From: an uncultured virus (IMG/VR IMGVR_UViG_3300011211_000002)
Lineage: Duplodnaviria > Heunggongvirae > Uroviricota > Caudoviricetes
DNA: 20,000 nt
Virus record (IMG/VR): IMGVR_UViG_3300011211_000002
Strand: one strand, 5' to 3'
The notes under the pieces were generated by a model. That model was not told the DNA's origin. It was given only the letters and a program-made list of their open reading frames with translations, and searched no databases. Below, piece by piece: positions 346 through 20,000 of this stretch. Positions within the stretch are counted from its first letter, which is position 1; each line of letters begins with the position of its first letter. The position numbers and the translations under genes were made by a program.

Positions 346-1104
346 TTATTCTATTTTTTTATGCTTCTCATCTATAGCTCGAACTATTTTTTCTTCTCTC
401 ATTTTATGATGACATGTTAAGCATATATTTGATGGTATTCGTGTATAGTCTCCTCTTTCTCTTTTATTTTTCCAAGGATTATTCTTTCTCATTGAATTAA
501 TTGGTTTATTTTCATTGCATATTTTACATTTTTTATATAACTTACATGTTTTGAATTCATATGGATTACTGTAGAATGTTATCTTCTTTAATTTTGATAA
601 CTCTTGTAAGACTATAGTAGTATTCCATGCATCATCTATGGCACTATGGATTACCCCTTCATATTGCCTGTTGAATATATCCATCGCTGTTGTAACACTA
701 GGATGACTTTCTAATTCGAAATAGCTTGTAAAATTTTCTTGTAAGTCACAGTAATTTTTAAGCCATCTATTAAAGTCAAATCTTTCTAGTTCATAATGGT
801 CAAATAATATATTTAAATCACTTTTAGACCAAAAAACTAAAATGTAATCGTCTGTTCCGATCCATTTTATGAATTCGTCATTAACTGTATGTATATCATT
901 AGCATTTACAATATCCTGCCTATTTTGATTCATTAAATACTCATTAGACATAAGCCGTTTAAATTTAGGTTTAACAAATTTATTGAATGTATCTTTTATC
1001 TCCATCGATGCATCTAACTTCACAGCTCCAACCTCTACAATCGACGACTGTTTACTTCTCCAGTTCTTTTTAGTCGCTTCTAAGTCCACAATAACATATA
1101 TCAT
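346..1104 (-). CDS. DEDDh 3'-5' exonuclease (KapD/ERI-1/DnaQ-like) with C-terminal Cys4 zinc-ribbon
   Basis: ExoI VDLEAT, IVEVGAVK, FNKFVKP, ExoII WSKSD, ExoIII HSAIDDAWNT. C-terminal CKIC...CLTC. GAGGTG RBS. Confidence 0.88.
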   Translation of the reverse strand: MIYVIVDLEATKKNWRSKQSSIVEVGAVKLDASMEIKDTFNKFVKPKFKRLMSNEYLMNQNRQDIVNANDIHTVNDEFIKWIGTDDYILVFWSKSDLNILFDHYELERFDFNRWLKNYCDLQENFTSYFELESHPSVTTAMDIFNRQYEGVIHSAIDDAWNTTIVLQELSKLKKITFYSNPYEFKTCKLYKKCKICNENKPINSMRKNNPWKNKRERGDYTRIPSNICLTCHHKMREEKIVRAIDEKHKKIE

Positions 1105-1830: not shown

Positions 1831-2034
1831 TCAATAATCATCGTCATCAAAAATTATTACCTTATTTTTTGTATCAGTAATCATTTGAATTCGTTCATTA
1901 AAAATAATTTCTACATCATTGTCTAATTTAATAGTTACATCGTCTATCATTTCCAAAGCAATTGGTTTGATTTTATGTGTTATTAAATATTCATCATAAT
2001 TAACCCAATGTGTCACTTCATATGTATTCATCAT
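1831..2034 (-). CDS. Hypothetical phage protein
   Basis: 67-aa ORF with AAGGAG RBS, co-oriented with the operon. Confidence 0.75.
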   Translation of the reverse strand: MMNTYEVTHWVNYDEYLITHKIKPIALEMIDDVTIKLDNDVEIIFNERIQMITDTKNKVIIFDDDDY

Positions 2035-2082
2035 AATTCTCCTTTTTATAATACGAATCTTTTATATAACCATTAAATTTTG

Positions 2083-2862
2083 TTATCCTAAGTACTGCAA
2101 CGAGTCACTCTTACATTTAGGATAACGTGTTTCTTTCTTAGTGTTATAACCACCATCATTCGATAATTTTTCATCAGCTTCTTGTTCTGTTGGAAGTTTT
2201 AAAGCTGTACTATACCCACATTCCTGATTTATACAAACATAATTGCCTTTCGGATCATTATCCATATCTTCTTTGTTCAATTGTTCGCCCATCTGCAATA
2301 GTAAATTTCTAAATGGTACAAAATCACCATAATTAGAGTATCCTGCTGAATATGTATATGTACGTGGAAAACGTAAATTATGTCGTTGATACTCAATGTA
2401 TCGTTTAGCCTCATCAAGAATAAAGAAATATGCTACTGGCTCATAATACTCTTGTATCCATGATATAGCAGTTACTTCGACTCTATAAGCTTCAAAGTAG
2501 TCTTTGTAGCTACAAATAGAATGTTCTTCTCCATCCACTCCTTCAATATCTTTTAAATAGGCTTCATCAAAACTAATTACATTAGCACCTTCAATATCGT
2601 TATCGTCTAAGTGATCATTAACTAATTCAACTTCATCTGTATACCAACTTTCATGCGCATCATCAGCACAGAATTCAATTGGTAGACCTCCAAACCAATC
2701 AGTTAAATCTTCATGATACGGTATGTAATTCTTGCGTTTAGTTTGTACTACATGAAAAGCATCTCTGGTACACAAATTGTCTATTGCTCCTTCGTAATGC
2801 TTGCTTGCAAATTCTTTGAGAAACTTCTCTTGTTTTTCGTTTAAATCGATTGTGATTTCCAC
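2083..2862 (-). CDS. Hypothetical acidic phage protein with degenerate C-terminal zinc-ribbon
   Basis: 259 aa, GGGGAG RBS with GTG start. CINQEC...YPKC tail. Confidence 0.8.
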   Translation of the reverse strand: MEITIDLNEKQEKFLKEFASKHYEGAIDNLCTRDAFHVVQTKRKNYIPYHEDLTDWFGGLPIEFCADDAHESWYTDEVELVNDHLDDNDIEGANVISFDEAYLKDIEGVDGEEHSICSYKDYFEAYRVEVTAISWIQEYYEPVAYFFILDEAKRYIEYQRHNLRFPRTYTYSAGYSNYGDFVPFRNLLLQMGEQLNKEDMDNDPKGNYVCINQECGYSTALKLPTEQEADEKLSNDGGYNTKKETRYPKCKSDSLQYLG

Positions 2863-2902
2863 TAAATCTCCCCTTTTTTCATTTTATAATATAAGCACTT
2901 TA

Positions 2903-3169
2903 TTAAATTCTTTTAGGTTGTTCATTCCATAGCGTCAGCTCATCGCTTGGTATTTCACTAAAATCATTTGGCAAATCTCCACCATATTCATCTACATAAT
3001 TGTCCGTTACTTCATAGGTAGCAAATGAACCATCTAATTCTTTTTCATTGATCAAACTTAAAAACGCTAAATTACTTATGTTATGTCCTGCTGTATAGAT
3101 TTTGTCATTAAAATACAACCATGCATAATCTCCTCGTTCCGCATACACTAATTTAATCTGCGTCATCAT
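2903..3169 (-). CDS. Hypothetical acidic phage protein
   Basis: 88-aa ORF with AAGGAG RBS. Confidence 0.78.
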   Translation of the reverse strand: MMTQIKLVYAERGDYAWLYFNDKIYTAGHNISNLAFLSLINEKELDGSFATYEVTDNYVDEYGGDLPNDFSEIPSDELTLWNEQPKRI

Positions 3170-3198
3170 TATCTCTCCTTCTATATAAAATGAACATA

Positions 3199-3711
3199 TT
3201 AATCAATTTTTAACATTACGGTTACATTCTCGTTCACACCAAAATGATATGTATATTTATATCCTCGAATATCCCATTTATCTTTTGAATCTTTGTATGT
3301 TACTTTTACAAATGTATATTTATTTATCTTATCGAATTCAACCATGACCATTTTAAAGAAAACCTCATTAACATCCTTACGATCTAATGCCCTACCTACA
3401 TTTCTTGCTTTAGAATTAAATTTTGTAAAGTACTCAATGGCTCTATATGGATCAATATATTCTTCTCGATTTACATAATCAGCAATAATTACGTATGCAT
3501 CATTGCTATAGCTGCTTTTACATAAGCGTCTATAAATATCTTTTGAAAGCAACTTTGCAACATATTCTGGGGTCGCTTTTTTCTTCAATCGTCTATATTT
3601 ATATTTCTCGAATTTATCAATCGCCCATGCTAACGGATGCATGATTTTGTAATATGTATTGAGCGATTTTGATTTAAAATTTTTTATCTTCTTGTATGTT
3701 GACGGCTTCAA
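3199..3711 (-). CDS. Hypothetical basic phage protein
   Basis: 170 aa, AAGGAG RBS with TTG start. Confidence 0.78.
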   Translation of the reverse strand: MKPSTYKKIKNFKSKSLNTYYKIMHPLAWAIDKFEKYKYRRLKKKATPEYVAKLLSKDIYRRLCKSSYSNDAYVIIADYVNREEYIDPYRAIEYFTKFNSKARNVGRALDRKDVNEVFFKMVMVEFDKINKYTFVKVTYKDSKDKWDIRGYKYTYHFGVNENVTVMLKID

Positions 3712-3760
3712 TTAATCACTCCTTTTCATTTTATGTATTTGTTTGAATAATAAATCACTT

Positions 3761-4141
3761 TTATTTAAATATAGATGTTAAACCAATGATATAGTCTGTC
3801 TTTGTAATAAATACTTGGTATTCTTCTGTGTGAGTATAATCGTCGTCAGAACTCATATCCAATTCATTATTATCGCCATCTAATTTAACTTTTCTTTTTA
3901 ATTCCCAACCATTTTCATTTTCTGTACAATCAAACTGTCTAATTGCACAATGAATTGATTCTAGTCGTTTTAATACAGTTTCTTTTAATTCGTTTTTATT
4001 CCTAATGTGAATCTCTTCACCCAAATAAACTGTAATGTCGCTTATTAGTCTATAATAATATGAATCATTGCCGTTCTTGTCTTTATATATCTCTCTTATA
4101 TCTGCATAGTACGCTCCTATATATGCTTTTTCTCCATACAT
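3761..4141 (-). CDS. Hypothetical phage protein
   Basis: 126 aa, GAGGAG RBS. Confidence 0.78.
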   Translation of the reverse strand: MYGEKAYIGAYYADIREIYKDKNGNDSYYYRLISDITVYLGEEIHIRNKNELKETVLKRLESIHCAIRQFDCTENENGWELKRKVKLDGDNNELDMSSDDDYTHTEEYQVFITKTDYIIGLTSIFK

Positions 4142-4190
4142 ATTTTTCGTCTCCTCTTCTATAATATTCAGTTTTTATTTAATCCTATAT

Positions 4191-4667
4191 TTAACTTTCT
4201 TCGATAATATCTTTTATTGCATTATGTACTGATTCAATATCTTTAAATGTGGACAGATACACAAGAGTATCCATATGTTCTTCTGTCAAACTAATAATCT
4301 CTTTACCATTTCTAATTAAATGTTCAACCTGATTATTGATAATGATATCCAATTCTTTAAATCGTTTCATCATTTCAGGTAAAATTAAATGAATTGCAGC
4401 GTCATTATATGTACTTATTCTATATGGTTTATGACATTGCGAAATATAGTACTCAGCTTGTTCAAGTAATGTTTCGTCTGTTAATTTAGGATAAATATCA
4501 TTTCGAGCGTATGAATTCATTCTAAAAGTTTGATATTCGTCTGGTGAAATACTCTTGTCACCAAATTCAGATACATGTTTCTGTGATCCATCATCAAATA
4601 ATACGTACTTCAATTCATTTTCTTGCTTCAGTTTTTCTACATACTCTTTTGGTAATTCAAATCCCAT
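4191..4667 (-). CDS. Hypothetical phage protein
   Basis: 158 aa, AGGAG RBS. Confidence 0.78.
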   Translation of the reverse strand: MGFELPKEYVEKLKQENELKYVLFDDGSQKHVSEFGDKSISPDEYQTFRMNSYARNDIYPKLTDETLLEQAEYYISQCHKPYRISTYNDAAIHLILPEMMKRFKELDIIINNQVEHLIRNGKEIISLTEEHMDTLVYLSTFKDIESVHNAIKDIIEES

Positions 4668-5019
4668 CTACATCGTCTCCTACCTTTCGATAATATCTAT
4701 CTTTTATGTAATTTTTAAAATAGAATCCAATTGTTTTGAACTGTATTAAACTCTTTCTTGACACTTTATATATCAATTTAACTTAAGCTCTCTATTAATT
4801 AATAGCGCCTTAATTCATTAGTAAAGCCAAATGCAATTATTATATAAGTTCAATTACCAGTATCGTTAAAGCGAATCACCATTAAAGGTTGCATAAATCT
4901 TTGTATATAAAGAATAAGATATTAAGATACATAATATACAGTATTTACGATTTATAATTTCACCTTTTCAGGTAAAATTCCAATCGTGAAAATTTTCCTC
5001 TTCTATCTTCCTTCACTAT

Positions 5020-5640
5020 TCATAGCTTATGTAAATTTACACTATAATGATTATTAAACTTTTCTAATCCACTATCTCCAAATGGATCATATTCTGCTTT
5101 GTGTTTAGTGATAGTAAGTAGTTTTTCTTTTGTTAACAATTTATTGTACTTTGTAACAGAAAAATTACTTATCCCTAAATCAATTTGAATAGTTTCATAG
5201 CTTGGATAACAAAACTGCTTTGACATATTACTTCTATTAATATAAGACTCGTAGTAATACATTAATCTAAATCCAATTAAACCTATATTATCGATTGATT
5301 TTAATAGCTCTAAAGGTAACTGTGTAAAGTAATCACTCTTATAAGGCTCTAACATTATAAATCGTAATGGTTTATTAATTGGCAGCTTATCTATTTGATT
5401 CTTAATTAAGCCTTGATTATGTAAATTTAAAAAACACTTCTTGAGAGTTCTATTATCTGTGATCCCTGTTACAACTTTTATATCTCTAAGTAAAACATCT
5501 ATTTCGCTATTATTGAACGCTTTAAACTTCTTATAAAGTAAATAAGCATATACTGCAAATGATTTCTCATCAAGATTGAATCCTATATTTCTAACTATTT
5601 CCGTTGGCACTTGAAGCCATAATTTAGTTTTATCACTCAT
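5020..5640 (-). CDS. Tandem winged-helix DNA-binding protein (HTH_36 / phage replication-initiator-like)
   Basis: Two internally similar halves (WLQVP...VYAYL...LHNQGLIK and FTQLP...LMYYY...LTKEKLLTI). FCYPSYETIQIDLGIS and the terminal NHYSV are typical of HTH_36-like domains. Confidence 0.65.
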   Translation of the reverse strand: MSDKTKLWLQVPTEIVRNIGFNLDEKSFAVYAYLLYKKFKAFNNSEIDVLLRDIKVVTGITDNRTLKKCFLNLHNQGLIKNQIDKLPINKPLRFIMLEPYKSDYFTQLPLELLKSIDNIGLIGFRLMYYYESYINRSNMSKQFCYPSYETIQIDLGISNFSVTKYNKLLTKEKLLTITKHKAEYDPFGDSGLEKFNNHYSVNLHKL

Positions 5641-5730
5641 TCAACTTTTACCCTTTATGTATATTATTTATTAATAATTAGGATGCCTCCAATCCATGTT
5701 ATACAATAATACGTAATACCAACGAAATAA

Positions 5731-5964
5731 TTAGTAACGATTTTTCTCCCATATTTCGGTTATTTTATCATTGTCATCTATACCGAAGTCAAATATCATT
5801 CCGCAATTATCACACTCTAGATATTCTGGCATCCCATAAGTTTTGTCCATACTAAGCTCAATTCTTTTAGAAATAGTACCTTTCTTTGTTATTTTGCGAT
5901 GTTCTGCAATACATTTTTCTCGATATAAAAATAAACTGCCAATTTTACAATTTGGGCATTTCAA
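5731..5964 (-). CDS. Small zinc-ribbon protein
   Basis: CPNC...CDNC. GAGGTG RBS with TTG start. Confidence 0.75.
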   Translation of the reverse strand: MKCPNCKIGSLFLYREKCIAEHRKITKKGTISKRIELSMDKTYGMPEYLECDNCGMIFDFGIDDNDKITEIWEKNRY

Positions 5965-6017
5965 ATTATCACCTCATCTTCTTTGCAATTTTAAATTTAA
6001 TAATAGATGTGTTTTAT

Positions 6018-6230
6018 CTAATACCTATTCATTACTTTTCCGTCAACTTCAAAAGTTAATTTAAAATGTTCTCCTTCGCCATGCCAAGATTTATCATCAA
6101 ACTTTTTTGATTCCACTAGTGAATAGATTATCTCACTAATATCTAGCTTTTCACCATTCATATCAATTAAATACCAATAATCTTGACTATCATCATAATA
6201 TAAACGACCTTCTAACAATTTATTCCTCAT
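6018..6230 (-). CDS. Hypothetical phage protein
   Basis: 70-aa ORF bounded on both sides by the ATAAWA-N6-TWTTAT element. Start uncertain. Confidence 0.7.
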   Translation of the reverse strand: MRNKLLEGRLYYDDSQDYWYLIDMNGEKLDISEIIYSLVESKKFDDKSWHGEGEHFKLTFEVDGKVMNRY

Positions 6231-6291
6231 CCTTTCAATAATAGTTCTATTTTATCTACTGATAGCAACACCTTTAACAAACTACAATCAT

Positions 6292-6579
6292 TTAATCAAT
6301 TGTAATCAAACCATCTTTTGTACTTTTAAGTCCTAATTTCTTTAATATTGCATTTAACTGTGCTCTATACCTAGCCTTCAATTTAATCTGTGTTTCTTTA
6401 TCCTCAAAATAGTCATTTTCATACTTAGACAACCAGTAAGTGGCCTCACTCATTGGCAATTCCTTAATTACTAACATATTTATTGCACGTAATCGATTAC
6501 TGAATTCCTGATTAGTTAAGCCTTTATTTTTATAGTAATCCGAAACAACTTTATAAATTACTTCTTCAGAAAACTCCAT
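6292..6579 (-). CDS. Hypothetical helical protein immediately downstream of the XRE gene
   Basis: ORF track gives 6292-6621. A better start is ATG 6579 (MEFSEE) with AAGGTG RBS. Confidence 0.7.
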   Translation of the reverse strand: MEFSEEVIYKVVSDYYKNKGLTNQEFSNRLRAINMLVIKELPMSEATYWLSKYENDYFEDKETQIKLKARYRAQLNAILKKLGLKSTKDGLITID

Positions 6580-6604
6580 GAAAATACACCTTCTTATATT
6601 ATCC

Positions 6605-6964
6605 TCAATTTTTGTATGCATCTGTTAAACCTTGAGCATAAGCTAATAATTTTATTTTAGATTCATCAATTTTCTCTTCTGGTACAGCTTTAATAATTTC
6701 TAAAAGTTCTGCCATACATTCATTTGCTGCTATTGCATTCTTTTGTTCATTTCTCCCTAACAGATAGTCTATAGAAACATCAAAAAAATCGGCTATATTG
6801 ATTAACGTTTCTAGCGTAGGTTGTTTTGTACCGTTTTCATATGCGGTATAGGAAGTCCTTGCTACATTCAATTTGTCAGCAACAAAACCTTGAGTCCAAT
6901 CCTTATTAGTAATTTTCATTTCTTCTCTTAACTTCTTGAGTCTCGCTGCTAATATAACCACCAT
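6605..6964 (-). CDS. XRE-family HTH transcriptional regulator
   Basis: RLKKLR...WTQGFVADKLNVARTSYTAYENGTKQPTLETLINIADFFDVSIDYLLGR is a canonical HTH_3. ATG 6964 follows GAGGGTGGTG. Confidence 0.93.
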   Translation of the reverse strand: MVVILAARLKKLREEMKITNKDWTQGFVADKLNVARTSYTAYENGTKQPTLETLINIADFFDVSIDYLLGRNEQKNAIAANECMAELLEIIKAVPEEKIDESKIKLLAYAQGLTDAYKN

Positions 6965-7003
6965 AATCACCACCCTCGTTTTACCTTTAATAATAACTTC
7001 ATT

Positions 7004-7531
7004 TTATTTACGCAAACCATCTATTACTCTTTTGTGGTACTCAATATCCTCTTCCTCTACATCAAATACAACTTTCTGATCAACATATTCGTCAAATAAT
7101 GAAGAATCAAACTTTTCACTCCATCCTATTAAAAACACCTTTTTACATCCCTTATCAAAGATATTTGTTATTGACTTCGTATTTACGCCCTTTTGATTAA
7201 TCATCGAGTCTATAGGATAAATGATTGTGTAATCTAGTTTGTTAGGCGAGTTCTTCCATGTCTTACTATCAATAGAGTCGAAATAAATATCATTAGAACC
7301 AAATTCATAAGGAGTACCAGTTTTAAAGTTATTACTGGCATTTAAAAATGTATCTAAATTTTTAAGTGTATTTGCTCTGAAAAGAATATTTTTATGTTCA
7401 GCCTCATTTCCTAAAATAGAAAGTACCAACTTATGCTTTTCATACATATGTGTACCCGTTAACAATAAACACCTTCTATCAGAATTAATAAAATCTATTA
7501 TCTGTTCTTTTGCTTTTTTTCTAGTATTCAT
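7004..7531 (-). CDS. Hypothetical alpha/beta protein resembling a degenerate P-loop NTPase domain
   Basis: AKEQIIDFINS...LLLTGTHMYEKH sits where a Walker A (LLLTGxxGxGKT) would lie. GAGGTG RBS. Confidence 0.7.
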   Translation of the reverse strand: MNTRKKAKEQIIDFINSDRRCLLLTGTHMYEKHKLVLSILGNEAEHKNILFRANTLKNLDTFLNASNNFKTGTPYEFGSNDIYFDSIDSKTWKNSPNKLDYTIIYPIDSMINQKGVNTKSITNIFDKGCKKVFLIGWSEKFDSSLFDEYVDQKVVFDVEEEDIEYHKRVIDGLRK

Positions 7532-7549
7532 GCAACTTCACCTCATAAT

Positions 7550-7867
7550 TTATTTCAATAACTTTTCAATTTTTAAAATGATCGATTCTAACTTAATTTT
7601 ATTTTCAGTTAAATTATTTTTGATAAGTACTAATTCCTCTTTTGAAAATAGTTCGATATCAGAAAAATCTATATCATCATTGCCTAATAAAAAATCTACA
7701 CTCACGTCAAGTTTCGATGATAATATCAAAAGCATGTCAATTGATGGAGTACTATACCCATTCTCATAATTACTAATTGTTGCTTTAGTTGTCGTTACTA
7801 ATTCAGCTAATTCTTCTTGAGTGTATTTTTTGTTTTTACGAGCAATTTTTAATCTTTTCTGGAACAT
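7550..7867 (-). CDS. XRE-family HTH transcriptional regulator
   Basis: RLKIARKNKKYTQEELAELVTTTKATISNYENGYSTPSIDML...VSVDFLLG. Confidence 0.93.
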   Translation of the reverse strand: MFQKRLKIARKNKKYTQEELAELVTTTKATISNYENGYSTPSIDMLLILSSKLDVSVDFLLGNDDIDFSDIELFSKEELVLIKNNLTENKIKLESIILKIEKLLK

Positions 7868-7924
7868 AATTCACCTTCTTCTATTACCCAGATTAGTAAA
7901 ATATTTTTTTTATTTTCACTTAAA

Positions 7925-8101
7925 TTACTTTTGTGAACCTTCATATTCCTTTATTTCACAATTCTCATTAGGTAAATTCAATTCTGCATAGCTTTCAGCT
8001 TCCTCTTTTGTTTCGAATAAGGTAGGTATTCTATGTTCAGTAATAATTGTCCCTGTTGTTGATTTAATTGCCCATTGATTTCCTATCTTTATAAAAAACA
8101 T
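7925..8101 (-). CDS. Hypothetical small protein
   Basis: ORF track gives 7925-8158. ATG 8101 (MFFIKIG) has an AGAGGA RBS and leaves the junction element at 8144-8161 intergenic. Confidence 0.7.
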   Translation of the reverse strand: MFFIKIGNQWAIKSTTGTIITEHRIPTLFETKEEAESYAELNLPNENCEIKEYEGSQK

Positions 8102-8167
8102 TATTATTCCTCTTTTCATTTTAATTTTAACTGCTATACATAAATAATAGACTTCCATTATCTAATC

Positions 8168-8764
8168 TTAATCAATTCCTAATTCAACTCTTTCATATTC
8201 TTTTTTACTTTGAATCATTTCAGACATACAGTCTTTATTAGCTATAGCTTCCTTATATACAGCTACAGCTTTTTCTTTAGAATCAAAGAATAAATGCTTA
8301 AATTTATCAATTTTTAAATCTAGGTAGCTGACTACATATTCACTATCAACCTCTAATTTTGAAATTAAAATTTCAGCTTCTTTTTCATCATCATCATCAT
8401 CATACTCTTCATCATCTGTATTTTCTTCTTCATTAAAACAAGCTAAATGTCGCTGTGGAACTAAATGAATTGAACCTGATGTATCTTCACATAAAGCCAT
8501 TCCATTATCGTATTTATAAATAACAATTAGCGTTGTATGCCCTTCAAGACCTTCATATGGCTCTTGAATTGTTGTTTCTATATCTAAGCATTCTTCCTCA
8601 ACAGAATGTATACCTAATCTCAATAGCTGATCACGATAATCCATTGAATCATCTAATATTACATCTATATCACTAGAAGACATACCTCTATCATCTAATT
8701 CATCATAAATATTATCTTCTATTTCTTTAAATTTTTTAATTATATCAAATATTTCTTTATCCAT
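8168..8764 (-). CDS. Highly acidic hypothetical protein
   Basis: 198 aa, rich in D/E including NEEENTDDEEYDDDDDEKE. AAGGAG RBS. Confidence 0.8.
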   Translation of the reverse strand: MDKEIFDIIKKFKEIEDNIYDELDDRGMSSSDIDVILDDSMDYRDQLLRLGIHSVEEECLDIETTIQEPYEGLEGHTTLIVIYKYDNGMALCEDTSGSIHLVPQRHLACFNEEENTDDEEYDDDDDEKEAEILISKLEVDSEYVVSYLDLKIDKFKHLFFDSKEKAVAVYKEAIANKDCMSEMIQSKKEYERVELGID

Positions 8765-8783
8765 TACTTACACTCCTTATTGA

Positions 8784-8858
8784 TTAATCTTCATCTCTTT
8801 CTAAGAATTTACTAATGAGATTATTTAATTCTTTACTCTCCATCACTCTATGAACCAT
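8784..8858 (-). CDS. Putative 24-aa micro-ORF (MVHRVMESKELNNLISKFLERDED)
   Basis: GAGAGGAAG RBS about 8-10 nt before ATG. Fills the gap between two operon genes. Confidence 0.4.
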   Translation of the reverse strand: MVHRVMESKELNNLISKFLERDED

Positions 8859-8892
8859 ACTTTTAACTTCCTCTCACCTTAAAGACTTCTTT

Positions 8893-9108
8893 TCACACTA
8901 GAGTTTGAGGTGTTTTCCCATCACCCTCTTTAATACTAGGTGCATTTTGAATAATGTTCATATTTTCTGATGAAACCAACACCTGACCAACAAGTTTGCC
9001 ATTTTTATACTGAAAAATCCATGTTCCTGTATCAAACTTTCTAAAATACGTTTTCATACCTTCTCTGTCTTCTAATTCACAATAACTCTCTAAAAACTCA
9101 CTTTTCAT
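8893..9108 (-). CDS. Hypothetical phage protein
   Basis: AAGGAGG RBS before ATG 9108 (MKSEFL). The ORF track start at 9132 is probably too long. Confidence 0.75.
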   Translation of the reverse strand: MKSEFLESYCELEDREGMKTYFRKFDTGTWIFQYKNGKLVGQVLVSSENMNIIQNAPSIKEGDGKTPQTLV

Positions 9109-9182
9109 TTTATCTTCCTCCTTAATATTCAATTAAAATACTTCTATTTTCTAATTATCATCCAATATGTAATATCTAAGCC

Positions 9183-9437
9183 CTAAGATACTAGTTCTGT
9201 AATAAGCTCATCGATGTCATCATGATGGTATGGAGCTACGTCTTTTAGCTTTACCAAGAAATTTTCCATTTTTGAAGGATCAACACAAGTGAATTCAACT
9301 TCTTTTTCTTCTGTAACTACATTTAATTCTACTCTGTTTGGCTTTCGAACGATATCAAACGCGAGTAAAAATTGAGCTTCATTTAATGTAGTGGAAATCA
9401 CCTGTAATGCTTCTTTTATTTGAACATTTACTTTCAT
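9183..9437 (-). CDS. Hypothetical phage protein
   Basis: 84 aa, AGGAGG RBS. Confidence 0.78.
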   Translation of the reverse strand: MKVNVQIKEALQVISTTLNEAQFLLAFDIVRKPNRVELNVVTEEKEVEFTCVDPSKMENFLVKLKDVAPYHHDDIDELITELVS

Positions 9438-9533
9438 AAGTATATTCCTCCTAAGTTTTATAAAATGCTGATTTTATGTAAGAGTAGTATCACTCTTTGT
9501 AATTCTCATAAAGTTCACAATTCAATTTCCGTT

Positions 9534-9779
9534 TCATTCATTTACTTCTTTTGTTTCAACTCCAAATAAAGGGCTATCAAAAAACTTACTCATTGTTATC
9601 GCACAACCATTACAATAAGCTTGAATTGTACTTACTTTTGGATGTTTTGATCGTCCATTCATAATCTCTGAAACAGTAGATTGTTTTAATCCTCCTCTTC
9701 TAGCGATTTGTGTAACAGTACTTTCACGTTCATCTGCTAATTGAATCATTCTTATTCCTATTGCGTTATGAAGTGTCAT
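9534..9779 (-). CDS. Cro/XRE-like single-domain HTH regulator
   Basis: STVTQIARRGGLKQSTVSEIMNGRSKHPKVSTIQAYC...MSKFFD. Confidence 0.88.
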   Translation of the reverse strand: MTLHNAIGIRMIQLADERESTVTQIARRGGLKQSTVSEIMNGRSKHPKVSTIQAYCNGCAITMSKFFDSPLFGVETKEVNE

Positions 9780-9928
9780 TTAAACTACGCCTCTTTTCAC
9801 TTATAATCTCTTCATAAAATTATACTTTTATAGATCAATTTTACTTGATGCTCAAATGGTATACAACTTCCAATTATAATACTAATCACAATTATAATCA
9901 GTTGCTGCCTCCATGTATACTTAACCTG

Positions 9929-9974
9929 ATATTACCATACGCATAAAAATAAAGTCAAATACAATTATGTATTT
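9929..9974 (-). promoter_or_regulatory. Leftward sigma-A promoter overlapped by a palindromic operator
   Basis: Minus strand TTGACT (9958-9953), 18 bp spacer, TG-g-TAATAT (9934-9929). Palindrome AAATACA-ATTA-TGTATTT at 9957-9974. Confidence 0.7.
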
Positions 9975-10008
9975 TTATATTTAATTTTAGTTTGGTTAAC
10001 TTAAATCA

Positions 10009-10179
10009 AAAATTCTATACGATTGAAGTTTCAAAATCATACAATTAATAAATCAAGATTCTGTCTATCTCTATATTCGTATTAAAATTCTACATATCCC
10101 AATTTTCAAAATGTAAAATTCTACGATTTTGATTTTTTAATTCTACAGTTTTGATTTTTTAAAGTGATGAAAAATTCTA
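10009..10179. repeat. (AA)AATTCTA direct-repeat cluster with a 22-bp tandem
   Basis: AAAATTCTA at 10009, 10084, 10115, 10171. Tandem AATTCTACGATTTTGATTTTTT / AATTCTACAGTTTTGATTTTTT at 10117-10160. Confidence 0.7.
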
Positions 10180-10277
10180 TAGATTTCATTTTTCATTCAA
10201 CCAGTTTAATTCTTGCTACATAAATCGATTTCTAAAAATGAACACAACAATACATCCTAATTTATTTTTTCATGTAT

Positions 10278-10604
10278 TTAGTTAGCTAACAACTTCATGT
10301 ATCCCTTTTGCAGCTCTTTCATTTGATCTTTATAATAATCAACTTCTTCTTTTGTATAACTTAGAGTAAATAATGTAGGAACTTCAATTTCCATATCTGA
10401 ATTATTAACTGAGATCTCATAACGAGCGAAATCATATTTATCCACTAATTCAAAACCATATTCTTTATTTATATTGTTAATACATTCTTCTCTTACCTCC
10501 TTACTCATTTGTAGTAGTGCGCCGTACACTTCATACTTATTATAACTAACCCCAATATTACAATCCGTAGCATTATTAACAACTAATTTTAATTGATTCA
10601 TCAT
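10278..10604 (-). CDS. Hypothetical phage protein (first gene of the left arm)
   Basis: 108 aa, AAGGGG RBS. Extended -10 TG-a-TATAAT at about 10647-10655 (minus). Confidence 0.78.
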   Translation of the reverse strand: MMNQLKLVVNNATDCNIGVSYNKYEVYGALLQMSKEVREECINNINKEYGFELVDKYDFARYEISVNNSDMEIEVPTLFTLSYTKEEVDYYKDQMKELQKGYMKLLAN

Positions 10605-10826
10605 TTTTATATCCCCTTTATTATTTTAAGTATTTATTCATATAAATTATATCACAACAACTTAACTTGTTTCTTTGTAAGATTAGATCATTTTAATATC
10701 AATATTCAAATTTTCAATAAATAATTACATTATTATGTATTTTATATTTTAATCAACTTAAGAATAATCGAGTTAAGATACCTATAACCTTACTCTAAGT
10801 AGATAACTGGAACTTTTACTAAAATA

Positions 10827-10880
10827 TATCTTACTTGTAAGCTATAAGTAAATTATACATAAGATACAAGTAAGATACAA
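10827..10880. repeat. 13-bp perfect inverted repeat plus tandem TAAGATACAA
   Basis: TATCTTACTTGTA (10827-10839) / TACAAGTAAGATA (10865-10877). TAAGATACAA at 10860 and 10871. Confidence 0.75.
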
Positions 10881-10998
10881 TAGTTTTTTAAATTTAATTT
10901 TGTATAATTTGGAAGTATTAATTATTCTTGACTATTCCCGTCTTTCTTATCAATTGATTTTTGAAAAGGAGTTTTGTTGTTTTGAGTTTTAGATGAAT

Positions 10999-11063
10999 AG
11001 TTCTAACTAATAAATTGATCGAACATATTATTGATTATGAGGTAAGATTTATTAGTTAGAACT
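10999..11063. repeat. 17-bp perfect inverted repeat with 31-bp spacer
   Basis: AGTTCTAACTAATAAAT (10999-11015) / ATTTATTAGTTAGAACT (11047-11063). Confidence 0.85.
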
Positions 11064-11446
11064 TTAACGGCTTTTTCAATTGTAATTATTTAAATACCTA
11101 TTATATTTAGCACTACTTTAACATTTGACTGTTACAATTAGCTCTAATTGTTCTTACTCATCCGTTTGTAATTAGAATGTCTCAGTGTTATTATTTGTTT
11201 CCTGTTACTATATGGGATCATGCTCACCACCCCTCGTCTCAAATTCATCCCAAAACTCGTAGCAATATTTTCTACACGCTGTTACTATATAGCGATTTGG
11301 ATACATATTGAATTAAAGTAAGCATTTTTTTGTGAAGTAACTTTGTAATTTCTCTATTAATAGGAAGAAACTCAATTCACTTATTAAAAGTTCTTATAAA
11401 CATTGATATAGGAGCGTCTATGTAGGTAACTAAATTTTATTTAAAT

Positions 11447-11520
11447 AAATACATAAATTTAGTTGACTAAATCTTCATCGGATGTTATGATAAATTCAAG
11501 TTAAACAAATAAATACATAA
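11447..11520 (+). promoter_or_regulatory. Strong rightward sigma-A promoter bracketed by two AAATACATAA sites
   Basis: TTGACT 11463-11468, 17 bp spacer, TG-t-TATGAT 11486-11491. AAATACATAA at 11447 and 11511. GGAGG RBS at 11531. Confidence 0.8.
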
Positions 11521-11543
11521 ATATACTTCAGGAGGAACAAATA

Positions 11544-12002
11544 ATGAAACTACAAAATAAAATCAGTGCTCTATCTAATATGAAAGCTAAAGAGTTACAA
11601 ACAGAGGCAAACAAAGAGGGTTTAACATGGTATAACCGTGAGGAAAAGCGAAAAATGCATAAAGATGAAATTATTACTTTGTTAACTGAACACTACACAA
11701 ACTTAATTGAACAGGATCAAAACACAGAATTAGAAATTGAAAACTCAACGACTGTTCAATTAGTTACACACTTTAAAGAACTAGCTTCCAATGCGATAAA
11801 TGCAGCTAAAGAAGACTATAACCAAGCAGCACAGCAATTAAGTAATGTAAAAGAGTTACTATCAGATGCATTAGTGAAGTTGCAAGATAAACTAACAGAC
11901 AAGAAAAACAAATTACTGGCTCGTAAATGGAACTTAACTATTAATAACATTAAATGTATTGTGACTACAGCAGAACGTAAAATAAACGCTGTAGTAGCTT
12001 AA
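11544..12002 (+). CDS. Protein with N-terminal Rho-N/HEH-like helical motif and coiled-coil C-terminus
   Basis: LSNMKAKELQTEANKEGLTWY...KMHKDEIITLL matches the Rho_N pattern (L..MT..EL...AK..GI..YS.M.K.ELI..I). Heptad-rich tail. Confidence 0.65.
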   Translation: MKLQNKISALSNMKAKELQTEANKEGLTWYNREEKRKMHKDEIITLLTEHYTNLIEQDQNTELEIENSTTVQLVTHFKELASNAINAAKEDYNQAAQQLSNVKELLSDALVKLQDKLTDKKNKLLARKWNLTINNIKCIVTTAERKINAVVA

Positions 12003-12040
12003 ATAAAAATACTATTTTATCTAAATTGGAGGAAAAGAAA

Positions 12041-12727
12041 ATGAAAAATTTTAGAAAACAATTAGGGTATGTATTAGAAAATAAAAATATATGTGTTAAT
12101 GGTTATACTGAAAATAAAATTTTATTCCAAAACAATGATGGTAAAATTGATAAACAAAGAAAAGCAACTTTATACACTAATAAGAAAGGTATTTACTTTA
12201 CTTATGAAAGTAAAAGATATTATGTATTAATTAATAAAGAGACGAAATCTAAGTCAATCGACCCTAACTCTATCGAAAGTACAATACTATCTGAAATGAT
12301 TGGAGACGTTGGAACTTTGATTGCTGGGTTACAAACTACGACTAGCAAAAAAACGTTAAAAGAAATAAATAAAGAAAAGTACAAGCCACATTCTAATTTT
12401 AGTAAATGGTTAGATAGTTTAGTTAAAACAGAAATAAAAAAGAAAGTAGAAGAAGAACATAGTAAAGCTATTTCTTTATTACAAATCAATTCAGATTTAA
12501 TCGGAACAGTTAGAAATAAAGTAAAACAAACTTTCTTAAAGGTTTTCGGTGCTGAAAATTTAAAATATAAGACAATCAACGTTGACAAGGTTTTCGGTGA
12601 AAGTACGGTTACAAAATATTCATTTTTAGCAAAAGAAAACGGCTTTAATTCTAATGATGTTGATCGACTTGTACAGTCTATTATTTATAGCGTGTTAAAA
12701 GAAAACAACCGTTTACAAATTAATTAA
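12041..12727 (+). CDS. Hypothetical basic phage protein
   Basis: GGAGG at 12028-12032 favours ATG 12041 over the track start at 12026. Confidence 0.8.
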   Translation: MKNFRKQLGYVLENKNICVNGYTENKILFQNNDGKIDKQRKATLYTNKKGIYFTYESKRYYVLINKETKSKSIDPNSIESTILSEMIGDVGTLIAGLQTTTSKKTLKEINKEKYKPHSNFSKWLDSLVKTEIKKKVEEEHSKAISLLQINSDLIGTVRNKVKQTFLKVFGAENLKYKTINVDKVFGESTVTKYSFLAKENGFNSNDVDRLVQSIIYSVLKENNRLQIN

Positions 12728-12773
12728 ATAAAAACATTATTTTATAAAATATATAAAATGGAGTGAATGAGGA

Positions 12774-13043
12774 ATGTTGAAATTTAATGGTATAAGCTTG
12801 ACAGATAAAACTATTCAAAAGACTAGAAAATGGTTTTCTGATAACGCTATAGCTTGTATTGAAGAAGCAAAGAGTGGAAAGGTTTATGTAAATGACTTAG
12901 ATTACTATACAAAACTAAATGAGAAAAGTTCAAAAGAGTATATAGATGGAAGACATGATCATGTTTTTACATTCTTACAGCGTGCATATTTTATACAAAC
13001 TGGAGAAAGCATTCCTTTATTTTCTTTTTTAAGTAATAAGTAA
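12774..13043 (+). CDS. Hypothetical phage protein
   Basis: 89 aa, GGAG/GAGG RBS. Confidence 0.78.
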   Translation: MLKFNGISLTDKTIQKTRKWFSDNAIACIEEAKSGKVYVNDLDYYTKLNEKSSKEYIDGRHDHVFTFLQRAYFIQTGESIPLFSFLSNK

Positions 13044-13073
13044 ATATTATCAAAAGATTGGAGTGCGTATGAA

Positions 13074-13268
13074 ATGCATCATACTGATAACGTGGCAATA
13101 GATAGATTTGCGAAAGGTAATTTATTGGATTTTCATTTGGATGGATATAACTACTATACAACTAAAACTGGTATACGTAAAAAGAAGAACATGAATGAAA
13201 AAGCTGTCACTATAACTGAGAGCGAATATATCTCAGCTTGGGAAAGATACGACTTCATTTTTAATTAA
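13074..13268 (+). CDS. Hypothetical phage protein
   Basis: 64 aa, GGAG RBS. Confidence 0.7.
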   Translation: MHHTDNVAIDRFAKGNLLDFHLDGYNYYTTKTGIRKKKNMNEKAVTITESEYISAWERYDFIFN

Positions 13269-13288
13269 TGATTCTGGAGGGCAATATC

Positions 13289-13561
13289 ATGAAGTATTCA
13301 TTTAGAAGAGAATTAGACGACCAAGAAATGAGCGATATTATAAATGAGTTATCAAATAAATTTGTAGGATTAACTTTTCAAGATGATAAATATCGTATAT
13401 TCATGGTGAATGGTCTTTCAATAATCACTAAAGGAAAAACTAATTATTGGTCACTTACTTATTCACCAATGAGCGACAATGGATTAGTTCATTCTTTAGT
13501 AAAATACACTATATCAATTGATGATTTTATTAATAGTAAATTTAAGTATGAAAAATTATAA
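13289..13561 (+). CDS. Hypothetical phage protein
   Basis: GGAGG at 13276-13280 favours ATG 13289. Confidence 0.72.
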   Translation: MKYSFRRELDDQEMSDIINELSNKFVGLTFQDDKYRIFMVNGLSIITKGKTNYWSLTYSPMSDNGLVHSLVKYTISIDDFINSKFKYEKL

Positions 13562-13631
13562 GAATTAATTAAGTAATATAACCATATCATTAGAAGCCCC
13601 TACCCCATTAATAAAGTGAGGTGAAAAGATA

Positions 13632-13781
13632 TTGGTGTAAAAATGTATAGCTGCAATTGACAATTATTTATGGACTCCTGAAGATGTTCCACAAGACAAA
13701 GTATCGTTCTATAAGGTTGCTTTATCAGTCAACGCTATATCTATTTTAATGCTCATATTTATTCTTACAAAAATTAATTAA
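13632..13781 (+). pseudogene. Small membrane-protein gene with a stop at codon 3
   Basis: GAGGTG RBS (13618-13623), then TTG GTG TAA followed by an open frame KCIAAIDNYLWTPEDVPQDKVSFYKVALSVNAISILMLIFILTKIN* with a C-terminal TM segment. Confidence 0.45.
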
Positions 13782-13783
13782 AT

Positions 13784-13827
13784 AAATACATAAAACCTAT
13801 TGTGTTTTATATGCAGTGGTGTATAAT
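13784..13827 (+). promoter_or_regulatory. Sigma-A promoter with upstream AAATACATAA
   Basis: AAATACATAA at 13784, 6 bp gap, TTGTGT at 13800, 16 bp spacer, TATAAT at 13822. Confidence 0.65.
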
Positions 13828-13998
13828 AAGAATTAAGAAAAGGAATTATTAAAATTTAATCAGAGTAAATAAACCAGATATAAACCTACATTGTTTATTG
13901 TGATTAAATTTTAAGTACGAAAGATCCTTAAATAAAATATGCTTTTTATCTAAAGTTAGGAAGCCAAAAACTACATAAATTAAATGGAGGTTTTATCT

Positions 13999-19054: not shown

Positions 19055-19106
19055 TTAATTAAATACATAACAATAAATTTTATAAAAATTGAGGAGAGTT
19101 GAATTT

Positions 19107-20000
19107 TTGGATAAACAAAAACCTATTTACATAATGAGTCTTGAAGCAAGCGACATATTTTATCATAACCACCGTAATATGAAACTCAAACGTGAGTATC
19201 ACGGTATGATTCCCTATTCACTAGAGTCCATTAAACTTGTCAAAAGTGGATTAAAAACTACATACATAGAAAAAAGAGATAAGTATATTAGTAACGATAT
19301 TATTAACGTGAAATTTAATTCAAGTGCTAAAAGTGCAGATGATATGGTAAAGATCATTGATAAGAAAATCAACTATGCTAAAGATGAAAACTATATAAGT
19401 GATTTATTAAGTTATAGAGAAAACCTAGAAGGACATTCAAGTAAGGCAGATGTTCCTAATATGTTATGGGATAAAGTTTCAGTTGAAGAATTAAGGAAAG
19501 AGTTATATCTAAATGGTTTCACCGTTTCTTTTACAAATGGTAGAACTGGAAAAGTAAAAGAAATAAAGTATGTAGTGTATAAGCGCTCATCTGCAAAATC
19601 TAGGACTGGACAATGCTTGTTTATCAAGGAGTCCCTATATAACAAAATGATTAAATGGTCGAGAATGGGATTACCTTTTAGAAAAGGTCAAACTATAGAT
19701 CTTGCAAGTTTACTAGCTTATGAATCACTAGTCGGTTCATCATTAGAGTATACAATTAATGTAAATCCAGACAAGATTCTGATTGTAGATGACATAGAGA
19801 GTAAATTTAAACAAATAGCTAATGTAGTTAGAACTGATCAAGTAACTAAAAGGTTAGATAGCTTCACAGAAGAATCCGAGATATCCAATTCTCTATTTGA
19901 CGGAGAATCATTATTGTCACATGAGTACTTTCCAGAAAACAAATCCATGCTTTTACTAAGAAATCATATGTTTAAATCTGCATCTTTCAATTGTAATATA
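19107..20000 (+). CDS. YonO-like / eukaryotic-RdRP-related single-subunit phage RNA polymerase, N-terminal 298 codons (partial)
   Basis: GAGGAG RBS, TTG 19107, frame open to the window edge. Motifs LYLNGF...KYVVYKRSSAKSRTGQCLFI, LAYESLVGSS, KILIVDDIE, FDGESLL and LLRNHMFKSA follow the order of YonO/RdRP motifs (F..SA.Q.R...C.F, L..S, I.V.D.E, TDG.G, .R....KG). The catalytic DxDGD would lie beyond the window. Confidence 0.8.
   Translation, partial: MDKQKPIYIMSLEASDIFYHNHRNMKLKREYHGMIPYSLESIKLVKSGLKTTYIEKRDKYISNDIINVKFNSSAKSADDMVKIIDKKINYAKDENYISDLLSYRENLEGHSSKADVPNMLWDKVSVEELRKELYLNGFTVSFTNGRTGKVKEIKYVVYKRSSAKSRTGQCLFIKESLYNKMIKWSRMGLPFRKGQTIDLASLLAYESLVGSSLEYTINVNPDKILIVDDIESKFKQIANVVRTDQVTKRLDSFTEESEISNSLFDGESLLSHEYFPENKSMLLLRNHMFKSASFNCNI

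Follow-up and report, generated by a model that had tools for sequence, protein, structure and literature searches.

Why the small genes of a temperate phage should be separated, one after another, by copies of the same short palindrome is the question raised by the DNA analysed here, a stretch of 20,000 nt from the uncultured virus IMGVR_UViG_3300011211_000002 of IMG/VR (hereafter the window). The palindrome, ATAAWA-N6-TWTTAT, had been noticed in a first-pass annotation made from the letters alone, which suggested that the genes might be cassettes and the palindrome a recombination site or scar of an integron-like system, and which named a DNA-binding protein and RNA processing as alternatives. 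We refer to the element as the linker and, from comparisons of related phage genomes, regard it as shown that linkers are the places at which such genomes are joined to one another, being ordered, individually addressed and located between swappable cassettes.

A symmetric element at the gene junctions of an SPbeta-like phage

The strict pattern occurred 12 times in the window, compared with a mean of 0.28 and a maximum of 2 in 200 dinucleotide-preserving shuffles, which bears out the enrichment suspected earlier, and the eleven strict copies listed by the first-pass annotation were all found where it had placed them. To these a further strict copy at 9814–9831 was added. Five copies, beginning at 2886, 3185, 7896, 8144 and 13033, deviated from the pattern by a single arm mismatch; the last of them was new and was counted as real because its spacer recurs in three relatives. 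All copies in the window were intergenic and lay 4 to ∼35 nt before a strong Shine-Dalgarno sequence, and the coordinates of the open reading frames (ORFs) confirmed that seven of them (2886, 3185, 3747, 6000, 6990, 12003 and 12728) abut or overlap the upstream stop codon, just as had been described. Genes between 346 and 10604 are encoded on the minus strand and those from 11544 onwards on the plus strand; in the minus-strand array at 1831–10604 a linker was present at 13 of the 18 co-directional junctions, as counted by eye.

The window is part of an SPbeta-like temperate phage of ∼30% G+C. Its nearest record, an 85.9-kb provirus fragment (G001), is 99.7–99.9% identical over about half of the window and encodes an 851-aa protein with 54% identity to YonO, the single-chain RNA polymerase of Bacillus phage SPBc2, as well as homologues of YomG, YopX, the HU-like YonN, YomM, YopP and YopQ. 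The N-terminal part of a YonO-type single-chain RNA polymerase is likewise encoded in the window itself (19089–20000, plus strand; PHROG 8308, E 1.6e-54). A YopR homologue was present in the related genomes G002 (121,875 bp with terminal repeats), G003 and G005, that of G003 matching the Pfam MrpR domains. The features by which SPbeta-like phages are recognized, namely the YonO-type polymerase, a yopP-yopQ-yopR operon, homologues of YomG, YopX and YonN and a genome of ∼120–135 kb, were thus all encountered in this group. At the nucleotide level, a megablast of the window against the phage collection gave no match, and a search in distant mode gave one match of 72 nt.

A logo was built from the 123 unique linker copies of the window and its three close relatives G001, G002 and G003, the four genomes of the clade. 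It revealed a flanking TT at positions −4/−3 (86% and 92% of the copies) and a flanking AA at +20/+21 (97% and 89%), while the six central positions were uninformative and the spacing of the arms was always 6. Owing to these conserved outer dinucleotides, the core recognized by the first-pass annotation is better described as the inner part of a longer, symmetric 26-bp site, TTnnATAAWA-N6-TWTTATnnAA. The polarity along transcription that had been noted for asymmetric copies was true of the window, where 7 of 7 are co-oriented with the downstream gene, and did not extend to the relatives, as 21 copies in G002 were co-oriented and 14 anti-oriented (2 without a called gene) and the corresponding numbers in G003 were 11 and 13 (4 without a called gene). 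Co-oriented and anti-oriented copies of G002 occupied the same place between stop codon and ribosome-binding site; the linker is thus a pseudo-palindrome without fixed direction. Within a site of this clade the two arms are usually of different type, one ATAAAA and one ATAATA, with such heterotypic sites accounting for 37 of 46 in G002 (22.9 expected, p 1.8e-5) and 28 of 37 in G003 (p 0.001).

The location of linkers in transcribed operon gaps, just upstream of each ribosome-binding site, and the resemblance of the arm TATTAT to a −10 hexamer would suit an element that acts in RNA, by processing, stability or a termination hairpin, or that serves as a promoter for the host or phage RNA polymerase. 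The linker is, however, neither a promoter nor a terminator nor a hairpin in RNA. When the 12 strict copies were folded as RNA, the energies were 0 to −3.4 kcal/mol, with arms pairing in perfect palindromes only, and the dominance of mismatched arm pairs is the opposite of compensatory change, so that the RNA-processing alternative of the first-pass annotation was left without support. No −35 hexamer accompanies the element, which also occurs in both orientations at the same place, and its arm form TTTTAT lacks the A at −11 that is conserved in promoters. Promoter-like matches numbered 72 compared with 83.5 in shuffles, and terminator-like matches 1 compared with 2.2. A role as promoter for YonO was rejected on the grounds that linkers are nearly absent from late regions and that YonO is reported to start the late genes of SPbeta from a single promoter (PMC5467207). 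Taken together, we consider an action in RNA or as a promoter very improbable.

Strict copies were over-represented throughout the group, with 31 in G001 (0.7 in local shuffles), 46 in G002 (0.9), 37 in G003 (2.0), 34 in G005 (2.2) and 14 in SPBc2 (0 to 3 in 20 shuffles), and five Bacillus subtilis-type proviruses carried 8 to 21 perfect palindromes each, as against 0 or 1 for a reversed control. In the 5.3-Mb genome of Nanhaiella sioensis, 15 of 21 matches fell inside 160 kb around an SPbeta-like prophage. This concentration indicates that the element belongs to the phage and not to the host, and the idea of a regulon of a host factor was rejected for the same reason. Within G002, 42 of the 46 strict copies were located at 9–68 kb, the region of small early genes; there were none at 70–105 kb and two at 105–115 kb.

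Private spacers and exchangeable cassettes

The first-pass annotation had correctly stated that the spacer always measures 6 bp and differs each time, treating the variation as incidental; it is instead the key feature, because each spacer is conserved at its locus across genomes. Within a genome the spacers were all distinct (46/46, 37/37, 31/31 and 12/12). Between genomes, 27 spacers of strict sites were common to G002 and G003 where 0.8 would be expected, and G001 shared 17 with G002 and 15 with G003. When one arm mismatch was tolerated, 146 collinear shared-spacer pairs were obtained among the clade's four genomes, the collinear fraction being 49/49 for G002 and G003 and 31/33, 33/35, 15/15, 9/9 and 9/9 for the other combinations. 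On these comparisons, the spacer is the part of the linker most conserved between genomes and is kept locus by locus. At orthologous sites with both flanks aligned, spacers were 90% and arms 93% identical as opposed to 75–79% for the flanks, a result that is suggestive given the small sample of 20 site pairs. Towards G005 and SPBc2, spacers were shared by the window clade at chance level (0–2 compared with 0.1–0.8 expected), which makes the addresses clade-specific.

The spacer cgaatc (plus strand) of the strict copy at 2048–2065 recurs at G001 64723 and G003 61271, with one homologous flank in each case, and that of the one-mismatch copy at 2886–2903, which abuts the stop codon of the gene at 2903–3169, recurs at G001 64161. 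Spacers between entirely non-homologous flanks were found for the copies at 3185–3202 (one mismatch; G002 58035) and 3747–3764 (strict; G001 63201). The strict copy at 4161–4178 is repeated as an identical 18-mer between unrelated flanks at G001 62816 and G002 58325, and the spacer of the strict copy at 4690–4707 is also present in these two genomes. The 18-mer of the strict copy at 6000–6017 (cacatc on the minus strand) exists in G001, G002 and G003 and in the IMG/VR contigs L172, L175 and L145/L152. Spacers common to the three relatives are those of the strict copy at 6238–6255, the one-mismatch copy at 8144–8161, the strict copy at 9460–9477 with its perfectly palindromic arms and the one-mismatch copy at 13033–13050 (G001 52904, G002 65911, G003 69653), and those of the strict copies at 6990–7007 and 9814–9831 are common to G001 and G003. 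For the strict copy at 13932–13949, the same spacer stands beside a left arm of different type in G001 and G002. The copy at 7896–7913 has one arm mismatch, identity with G001 passes through the strict copy at 12003–12020, and the strict copy at 12728–12745 has no partner in the three relatives.

Such conservation bears on a serious rival explanation, in which the linker would be the operator of a dimeric regulator (the ParB-like YopQ/SroE or one of the XRE-type helix-turn-helix proteins of the array) and exchange would be driven by 18–26 bp of identity through a Sak4-type annealing protein of the phage or host RecA. On this view genomes would be joined at linkers solely for want of any other short sequence that is still identical after their divergence, and the crossovers would need no recombinase of their own. 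Dimeric DNA-binding proteins typically recognize symmetric sites of this kind, 26 bp long and with a spacer lacking consensus; the early-region copies are placed shortly before ribosome-binding sites, and three XRE-type genes are present in the window. Moreover, SPbeta-like phages encode a ParB-like second repressor to which published accounts assign no target (PMC8612738; bioRxiv 10.1101/2025.11.27.690993). A regulator, however, would not account for arms that switch type around a spacer more conserved than any other part, it leaves unexplained the excess of spacer over flank identity at orthologous sites, and the strong preference for unlike arms does not fit a homodimer. A DNA-binding regulator, as one of the alternatives of the first-pass annotation was understood here, is nonetheless a live rival.

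Spacers are retained while their surroundings change. When 400-nt flanks were compared by blastn (word 7) or tblastx at E 1e-3, homology was detected in neither flank for 54 of the 146 pairs, in one for 62 and in both for 30, so that one or both flanks lacked homology in 116. Both neighbouring ORFs were non-homologous by blastp in 30 of 51 cases of identical 18-mers. At 78 non-homologous sides, exact identity continued beyond the 18-mer for 0 nt in 31 cases, 1 nt in 18, 3–5 nt in 21 and 6–9 nt in 8, and as it stops so near the edges of the 18-mer, the conserved block is the linker itself. The arms were more variable beside replaced sequence, a differing arm being observed on 84 of 243 sides next to an unrelated flank compared with 6 of 49 next to a homologous one (odds ratio 3.8, p 0.002); where arm types differ, the unbroken identity between two copies shrinks to 8–13 bp.

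Whole intervals behaved in the same manner. Where two genomes had the same pair of consecutive linkers, 127 intervals could be compared; the interiors were unrelated in 56, partly homologous in 35 and mostly homologous in 36, and their lengths could differ widely (503 versus 2011 nt; 726 versus 248 nt). The window slots 2048–2886, 3747–4161, 4161–4690, 6000–6238, 6238–6990 and 9460–9814 contain sequence unrelated to that of at least one relative. Between 2069 and 4682 no homology with G001 was detectable by BLAST, yet five linkers were common to both in the same order. The one- or two-gene accessory units that the first-pass annotation saw between its elements are indeed swapped between relatives, homology ending at or near 2048, 4690 and 13932, and two of the units it named, 6018–6230 and 6292–6964, could be recognized as exchangeable slots with unrelated content in G002 and/or G003. 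The former is a one-gene cassette (70 aa, minus strand) of slot 6000–6238, whose interiors in G002 and G003 are unrelated and of 246 nt and 191 nt. The latter corresponds to a two-gene cassette (6292–6973, minus strand) of slot 6238–6990 coding for 109 aa and for a 122-aa XRE-type helix-turn-helix protein with PHROG and Pfam helix-turn-helix matches; its G003 counterpart (62726–63000) has 248 unrelated nt only. Slot 3747–4161 is occupied by a one-gene cassette encoding a 126-aa protein of no family (3761–4141, minus strand), and in G001 the slot between 63201 and 62816 has 359 nt without detectable homology to it. Gain or loss of entire units was seen as well, namely in a 375-bp one-gene insert of G001 between two linker copies where G002 has one, and in the six window genes between two linkers (2083–4667) in place of which G003 has a single copy carrying the 2048 spacer. 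The cassettes are arranged in long operons in which internal promoters and terminators were not in excess. A sigma-A-like promoter at 9929–9958 (minus strand; TTGACT, 18-nt gap, TAATAT, with TG) probably drives the minus-strand array, and another at 11463–11491 (plus strand; TTGACT, 17-nt gap, TATGAT, with TG) belongs to the plus-strand array.

The same behaviour was met in further records. An IMG/VR scan with the 6000 linker returned 44 matches, mostly chance matches in unrelated phages; a second linker copy was present at 7 loci only, and the same 18-mer stood in at least six different immediate contexts. Among the B. subtilis-type proviruses and SPBc2, identical 18-mers were again found between unrelated flanks. 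The spacer TTAGAA occurred in four proviruses, with homology beside the linker in 0 of 6 pairs, and the spacer GTAATT at SPBc2 95562 had only its left flank in common with one provirus and neither flank in common with another. An 18-bp repeat is shorter than the word sizes usually employed in assembly. Chimeric assembly is unlikely to have produced the pattern, since it is seen in reference and provirus records just as in metagenome contigs.

If genomes are joined at linkers, the ends of their homologous blocks should gather there. The window ceases to be homologous to G001 inside the 2048 copy, homology resumes 4–8 nt before the 4690 copy, and identity ends ∼6 nt past the 13932 copy and ∼25 nt past the 12003 copy. 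When alignments of the four genomes were chained, the early region had 231 distinct block ends, of which 39 lay within 6 nt of a strict copy, as opposed to 1.8% of random positions and ∼11% of random intergenic positions, a point in favour of the cassette boundaries inferred in the first-pass annotation. These ends spiked at 0 and at 3–6 nt on either side of the linker and amounted to 0.33 per site, or 1.55 times the intergenic null, whereas an equally abundant second motif (described below) collected 11 of 231 ends (0.10 per site, 0.82 times the null) and Shine-Dalgarno-like pentamers 14 (1.15 times the null). Co-directional junctions with a linker were broken in 73 cases and spanned in 10, those without one broken in 69 and spanned in 34 (odds ratio 3.6, p 9e-4). 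A count over whole genomes revealed no excess over the intergenic null, with 17 of 370 ends within 10 nt compared with 7.2% expected; it was superseded by the chained, early-region analyses.

These data also speak to the view that the linker is purely regulatory, a silencer or roadblock operator at almost all junctions of early genes, whose link with mosaicism is a by-product of the loss of intragenic exchanges and of short gaps. Intergenic gaps are indeed short, the linker often spans the distance from the stop codon to ∼4 nt before the ribosome-binding site, and, as noted, random intergenic positions already lie near a copy at a rate of ∼11%. In addition, MrpR/SroF, a dead protein of the tyrosine-recombinase fold, is described as a repressor acting at dispersed sites in this very phage family (PMC10516654). 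We nevertheless judge this view improbable, as it leaves unexplained the 116 same-spacer pairs with replaced flanks, the identity that stops exactly at the linker edges and the more frequent breakage of linker-bearing junctions.

Candidate binding proteins and modes of exchange

MrpR/SroF itself is probably not the protein that recognizes the linker. The SPbeta repeated element (SPBRE) derived from seven SPBc2 upstream regions, AAATACAAAWAATATGTATA, differs from the linker, and chromatin affinity purification sequencing (ChAP-seq) of MrpR in SPbeta is reported to have yielded ten peaks and a 15-bp motif matching SPBRE only (PMC10516654), despite the 14 linker copies of SPBc2, a result that also counts against the purely regulatory view. 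One of those copies, at 99497, is situated ∼140 nt upstream of yorE, a gene for which an MrpR peak was reported. SroF is described as binding as a monomer and reading 24 of 26 bp (bioRxiv 10.1101/2025.11.27.690993), which does not fit a site whose centre is uninformative. Whereas the SPBRE and SroF boxes are asymmetric and ∼15–26 bp long, the linker is symmetric and of different sequence.

The integron-like system favoured by the first-pass annotation had to be given up. None of the 35 ORFs of the window matched an integrase family, neither IntI nor attI was found beside the array, and the recombinase profile of the relatives reached only E 3e-3 with IntI4 as compared with 1e-17 for an Xer-like structure. 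Integron attC sites are imperfect inverted repeats of ∼57–141 bp that fold as single strands, whereas the linker is 18–26 bp in length and without an attC-like fold, and its spacer remains with its slot when one cassette gives way to another.

The likeness to tyrosine-recombinase core sites that had been pointed out at the same time fared better, since the linker does consist of two inverted arms around a fixed 6-bp centre and Xer-like genes are present in the relatives. The central region of such core sites must be identical in both partners, a rule which the 146 collinear shared-spacer pairs appear to follow, and unlike arms are what characterizes sites to which two different Xer proteins bind. 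YopP-like proteins were found in all SPbeta-like genomes examined and YomM-like proteins in most, and both pass the Pfam Phage_integrase model. Their joint profile matched Xer structures (4a8e, XerC-like, E 1.3e-17; XerA, 8.5e-13; XerD, 4e-6) with the catalytic R, K, H, H and Y aligned; a PDB search with a single YopP-like protein gave no match. As for the SPbeta phage itself, it integrates by means of the serine recombinase SprA, and YopP is noted only for its XerC-type domain in published accounts (PMC8612738).

Two further observations were made on genes of this kind. The YomM-like gene of G002 (91264–92287, L106) matches SPBc2 YomM in two pieces that lie in different frames, and its ORF stops at 261 aa, which reflects either a frameshift or a sequencing error. 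The same region of G003 contains a different integrase (99312–100340) with the full R, H-x-x-R, H, Y set.

We tentatively propose, with slightly more doubt than belief, that linkers are addressed recombination sites at which copies with the same spacer cross over, the Xer-like YopP and YomM homologues being the likely agents. That the exchange would be site-specific rather than homology-driven, and which protein would bind, we infer from the combination of arms, fixed 6-bp centre, matching centres and unlike arms, which is the logic of tyrosine-recombinase core sites. A phage protein would bind the two 10-bp inverted arms (TTnnATAAWA) common to all linkers, while the 6-bp spacer would be private to each junction and unchanged from one related phage to another. 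Should two such genomes come together, for instance when a phage infects a cell carrying a related prophage, a crossover inside the linker would take place between copies with the same spacer, so that one side would be exchanged and order and register would be kept. In this process YopP/SroD and/or YomM would bind the arms and exchange strands across the matching spacer, as occurs at dif, lox and FRT. Through repeated exchange, each linker interval would become an independently assorting slot for unrelated one- or two-gene cassettes, which would bring no promoter of their own but their own ribosome-binding site and be read from one upstream promoter. Within a genome the array would remain stable because the spacers differ and the copies would therefore not recombine together. 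The full form of the proposal, a natural heterospecific cassette exchange with ∼15 to 50 ordered Xer-type sites of private 6-bp overlaps recombined by YopP/SroD and/or YomM, is possible, though we would sooner doubt than assert it.

Several points weigh against this proposal. All YomM homologues, SPBc2 YopP and the YopP homologues of the window clade have lysine in place of the second catalytic arginine, which is retained only in the YopP homologue of G005 and in the unrelated integrase of G003, and this renders the catalytic activity of YopP and YomM uncertain. The window has no recombinase gene, and the yopP-like gene of G002 is ∼18 kb away from the stretch that matches the window. With a more sensitive flank test the association between differing arms and unrelated flanks became weaker (61 of 170 compared with 29 of 122, odds ratio 1.8, p 0.03), and it could reflect drift at the two W positions over a longer divergence. 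The excess of block ends is modest at 1.55 times the intergenic null, pairwise counts lack independence in that one event may be visible in several genome pairs, several other indels have a linker at one end only, and the genes were crude longest-ORF calls. Finally, the evidence comes wholly from comparing sequences, and the data on spacers, flanks, slots and junctions do not separate the mechanisms, as crossovers within an 18-bp identical tract give the same footprints.

It is for this last reason that short-homology recombination at a regulator's operator, introduced above, has to be taken seriously. Sharp junctions would equally be expected from crossovers within the 18-bp identical tract, SPBc2 is annotated with a Sak4-like annealing protein, YorG, and relaxed homologous recombination by phage annealing proteins is documented (PMC3945230, PMC2327257). 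On the other hand, the second motif is equally abundant, with 9–12 conserved bases, and yet is no junction hotspot, and the 8–13 bp of unbroken identity that remain where arm types differ are short for homology-driven exchange. In view of these points, together with those raised by the spacers and the unlike arms, we consider the combination of operator and homology unlikely on balance.

Neighbouring motifs and genes, and known systems compared

The second motif mentioned above, AAATACATAA, is found in the window at 9966–9973 (minus), 10734–10741 (minus), 11448–11455 (plus), 3732–3739 (minus) and other positions. In G002, the 9-mer AATACATAA occurs 61 times and AAATACATA 76 times compared with 7.3 expected, and the direction of the motif follows the genes, as 21 of 22 plus-strand copies fall at 64.8–118 kb, where genes are on the plus strand, and 39 of 39 minus-strand copies at 4–64 kb. 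It is present in both early and late regions, either ∼5–7 nt upstream of a sigma-A-like −35 hexamer or directly upstream of a ribosome-binding site; the copy at 9966–9973 lies directly upstream of the 9929–9958 promoter and that at 11448–11455 upstream of the 11463–11491 promoter. Its sequence, orientation and placement are like those of the left half of SPBRE, so that it may be the MrpR/SroF-type box of this clade, for which it is a better candidate than the linker. In SPBc2 (L006/L007/L123; 113663–113720 and 132746–132800), linkers upstream of mtbP and yotJ are followed by a TAAAAATAAAAT-type sequence, which upstream of yotJ is nearly the reverse complement of the published phi3T SroF box, and the over-represented word AAATAAATTAAT of G005 occupies the same place after the linker. 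A layout of linker, clade-specific directional box and ribosome-binding site may thus be common.

The three XRE-type helix-turn-helix genes of the cassette array are located at 6605–6973, 7550–7867 and 9534–9779, all on the minus strand. The protein encoded at 7550–7867 is 34% identical to SPBc2 YonR; two YonR-like genes were found in G002, and none was detected in G005, whose linker is a perfect palindrome. This distribution may hint at a binder of the two arm types or be a coincidence.

Other genes and features were recorded alongside. The 252-aa protein encoded at 346–1104 (minus strand) had no PHROG match, and its G001 counterpart (L004:5681–6439) matched the Pfam RNase_T family of DEDD exonucleases (E 8e-11). 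Near one of its ends G001 encodes an actin-like ALP_N protein (L001:293–1129) and an FtsK/SpoIIIE-family protein (L001:3946–6225), and its early cassettes include an Apyc1-like protein of the metallo-beta-lactamase fold (anti-Pycsar family, just above the curated cut-off; L004:13846–14565) and a Thg1-like tRNA-His guanylyltransferase (L004:9411–10154). Between the two divergent arrays of the window lies a gap of ∼940 bp (10605–11543) with no ORF of at least 40 aa on the gene strands; the lowest G+C content of the window (23%) is found at 10001–11000, the GC skew changes sign in the gap, and several copies of the second motif and promoter-like sites are located there.

The closest described analogue of the linker is the promoter-early stem-loop (PeSL) of T4-type phages, a sigma-70 promoter with a terminator stem-loop which is reported to mediate modular shuffling (Arbiol et al. 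2010, PMC2839356; Comeau et al. 2014, PMC4122927). As described in these texts, PeSLs share with linkers a short, conserved and intergenic nature, a location among small non-essential genes of hyperplastic early regions, a coincidence with insertion, deletion and replacement junctions between relatives and a role as exchange points for unrelated sequences. The linkers, too, lie among small ORFs and coincide with indel and replacement junctions of close relatives. PeSLs, however, recombine with one another by homology and give rise to mini-circles, whereas the linker, at 18–26 bp, is much shorter, has neither a promoter nor a stable stem and carries a private 6-bp spacer. Because this spacer is unique within a genome and conserved between genomes, fixing the order of the slots, linkers form an ordered scaffold and not a set of interchangeable repeats.

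Core sites of the dif and lox type are also among the closest known kinds. The dif site recognized by XerC/XerD has an 11-6-11 layout, close to the 10-6-10 of the linker, and loxP is used by Cre and FRT by Flp; all have inverted protein-binding arms and a central region of fixed length (6–8 bp) conserved between partners, as the linker has, and the two arms of the linker are often of different type, as those of dif are. Xer-family genes are encoded in the linker-bearing genomes. The linker differs in an arm sequence that is not that of dif, in the dozens of sites per genome, each with its own spacer, and in candidate enzymes with mostly lysine at the second arginine. Its logic resembles that of engineered cassette exchange between spacer-variant, heterospecific lox or FRT sites, although to our knowledge no natural system with dozens of core sites, each of a different spacer, is known.

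SPBRE is related to the linker by occurrence, being an AT-rich repeat dispersed in the early intergenic regions of the same phage family, sometimes directly upstream of a ribosome-binding site, and recognized by a protein of the tyrosine-recombinase fold, MrpR (YopR/SroF) (PMC10516654; bioRxiv 10.1101/2025.11.27.690993). A homologue of MrpR exists in the relatives. The two are unlike in sequence, and SPBc2 holds both at different places. An integron array resembles the linker array in that one- or two-gene cassettes without promoters of their own follow one another in the same orientation, with imperfect inverted repeats between them, and depend on a single promoter upstream for their transcription. 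In integrons new cassettes enter at attI irrespective of order, whereas the order of linker slots is conserved between genomes. A literature search did not find the linker described in SPbeta-like phages, which is not proof that no such description exists.

How mosaic phage genomes come to be joined exactly at gene borders is a long-standing question, to which linker sequences, illegitimate recombination followed by selection and relaxed homologous recombination have been the candidate answers. The linker is a concrete molecular candidate, its common arms implying a binding protein and its private, conserved spacer a positional address, and linkers addressed in this way would account for the exchange of unrelated cassettes at dozens of junctions while gene order is retained. 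As SPBc2 and its B. subtilis relatives carry this element too, and it behaves there in the same way, the proposal is testable in a tractable system. Should the exchange be site-specific, it would be the first natural system known to us in which spacer-variant sites organize exchange over a whole genome, and it would provide a set of mutually orthogonal recombination sites. If true, phages of this family would practise a register-preserving, homology-independent form of ‘sex’ at every accessory-gene junction, with deletions within a genome forbidden; two conserved orphan recombinases of a model phage would gain a function, and there would be a hint as to how the MrpR/SroF repressor and its dispersed boxes arose.

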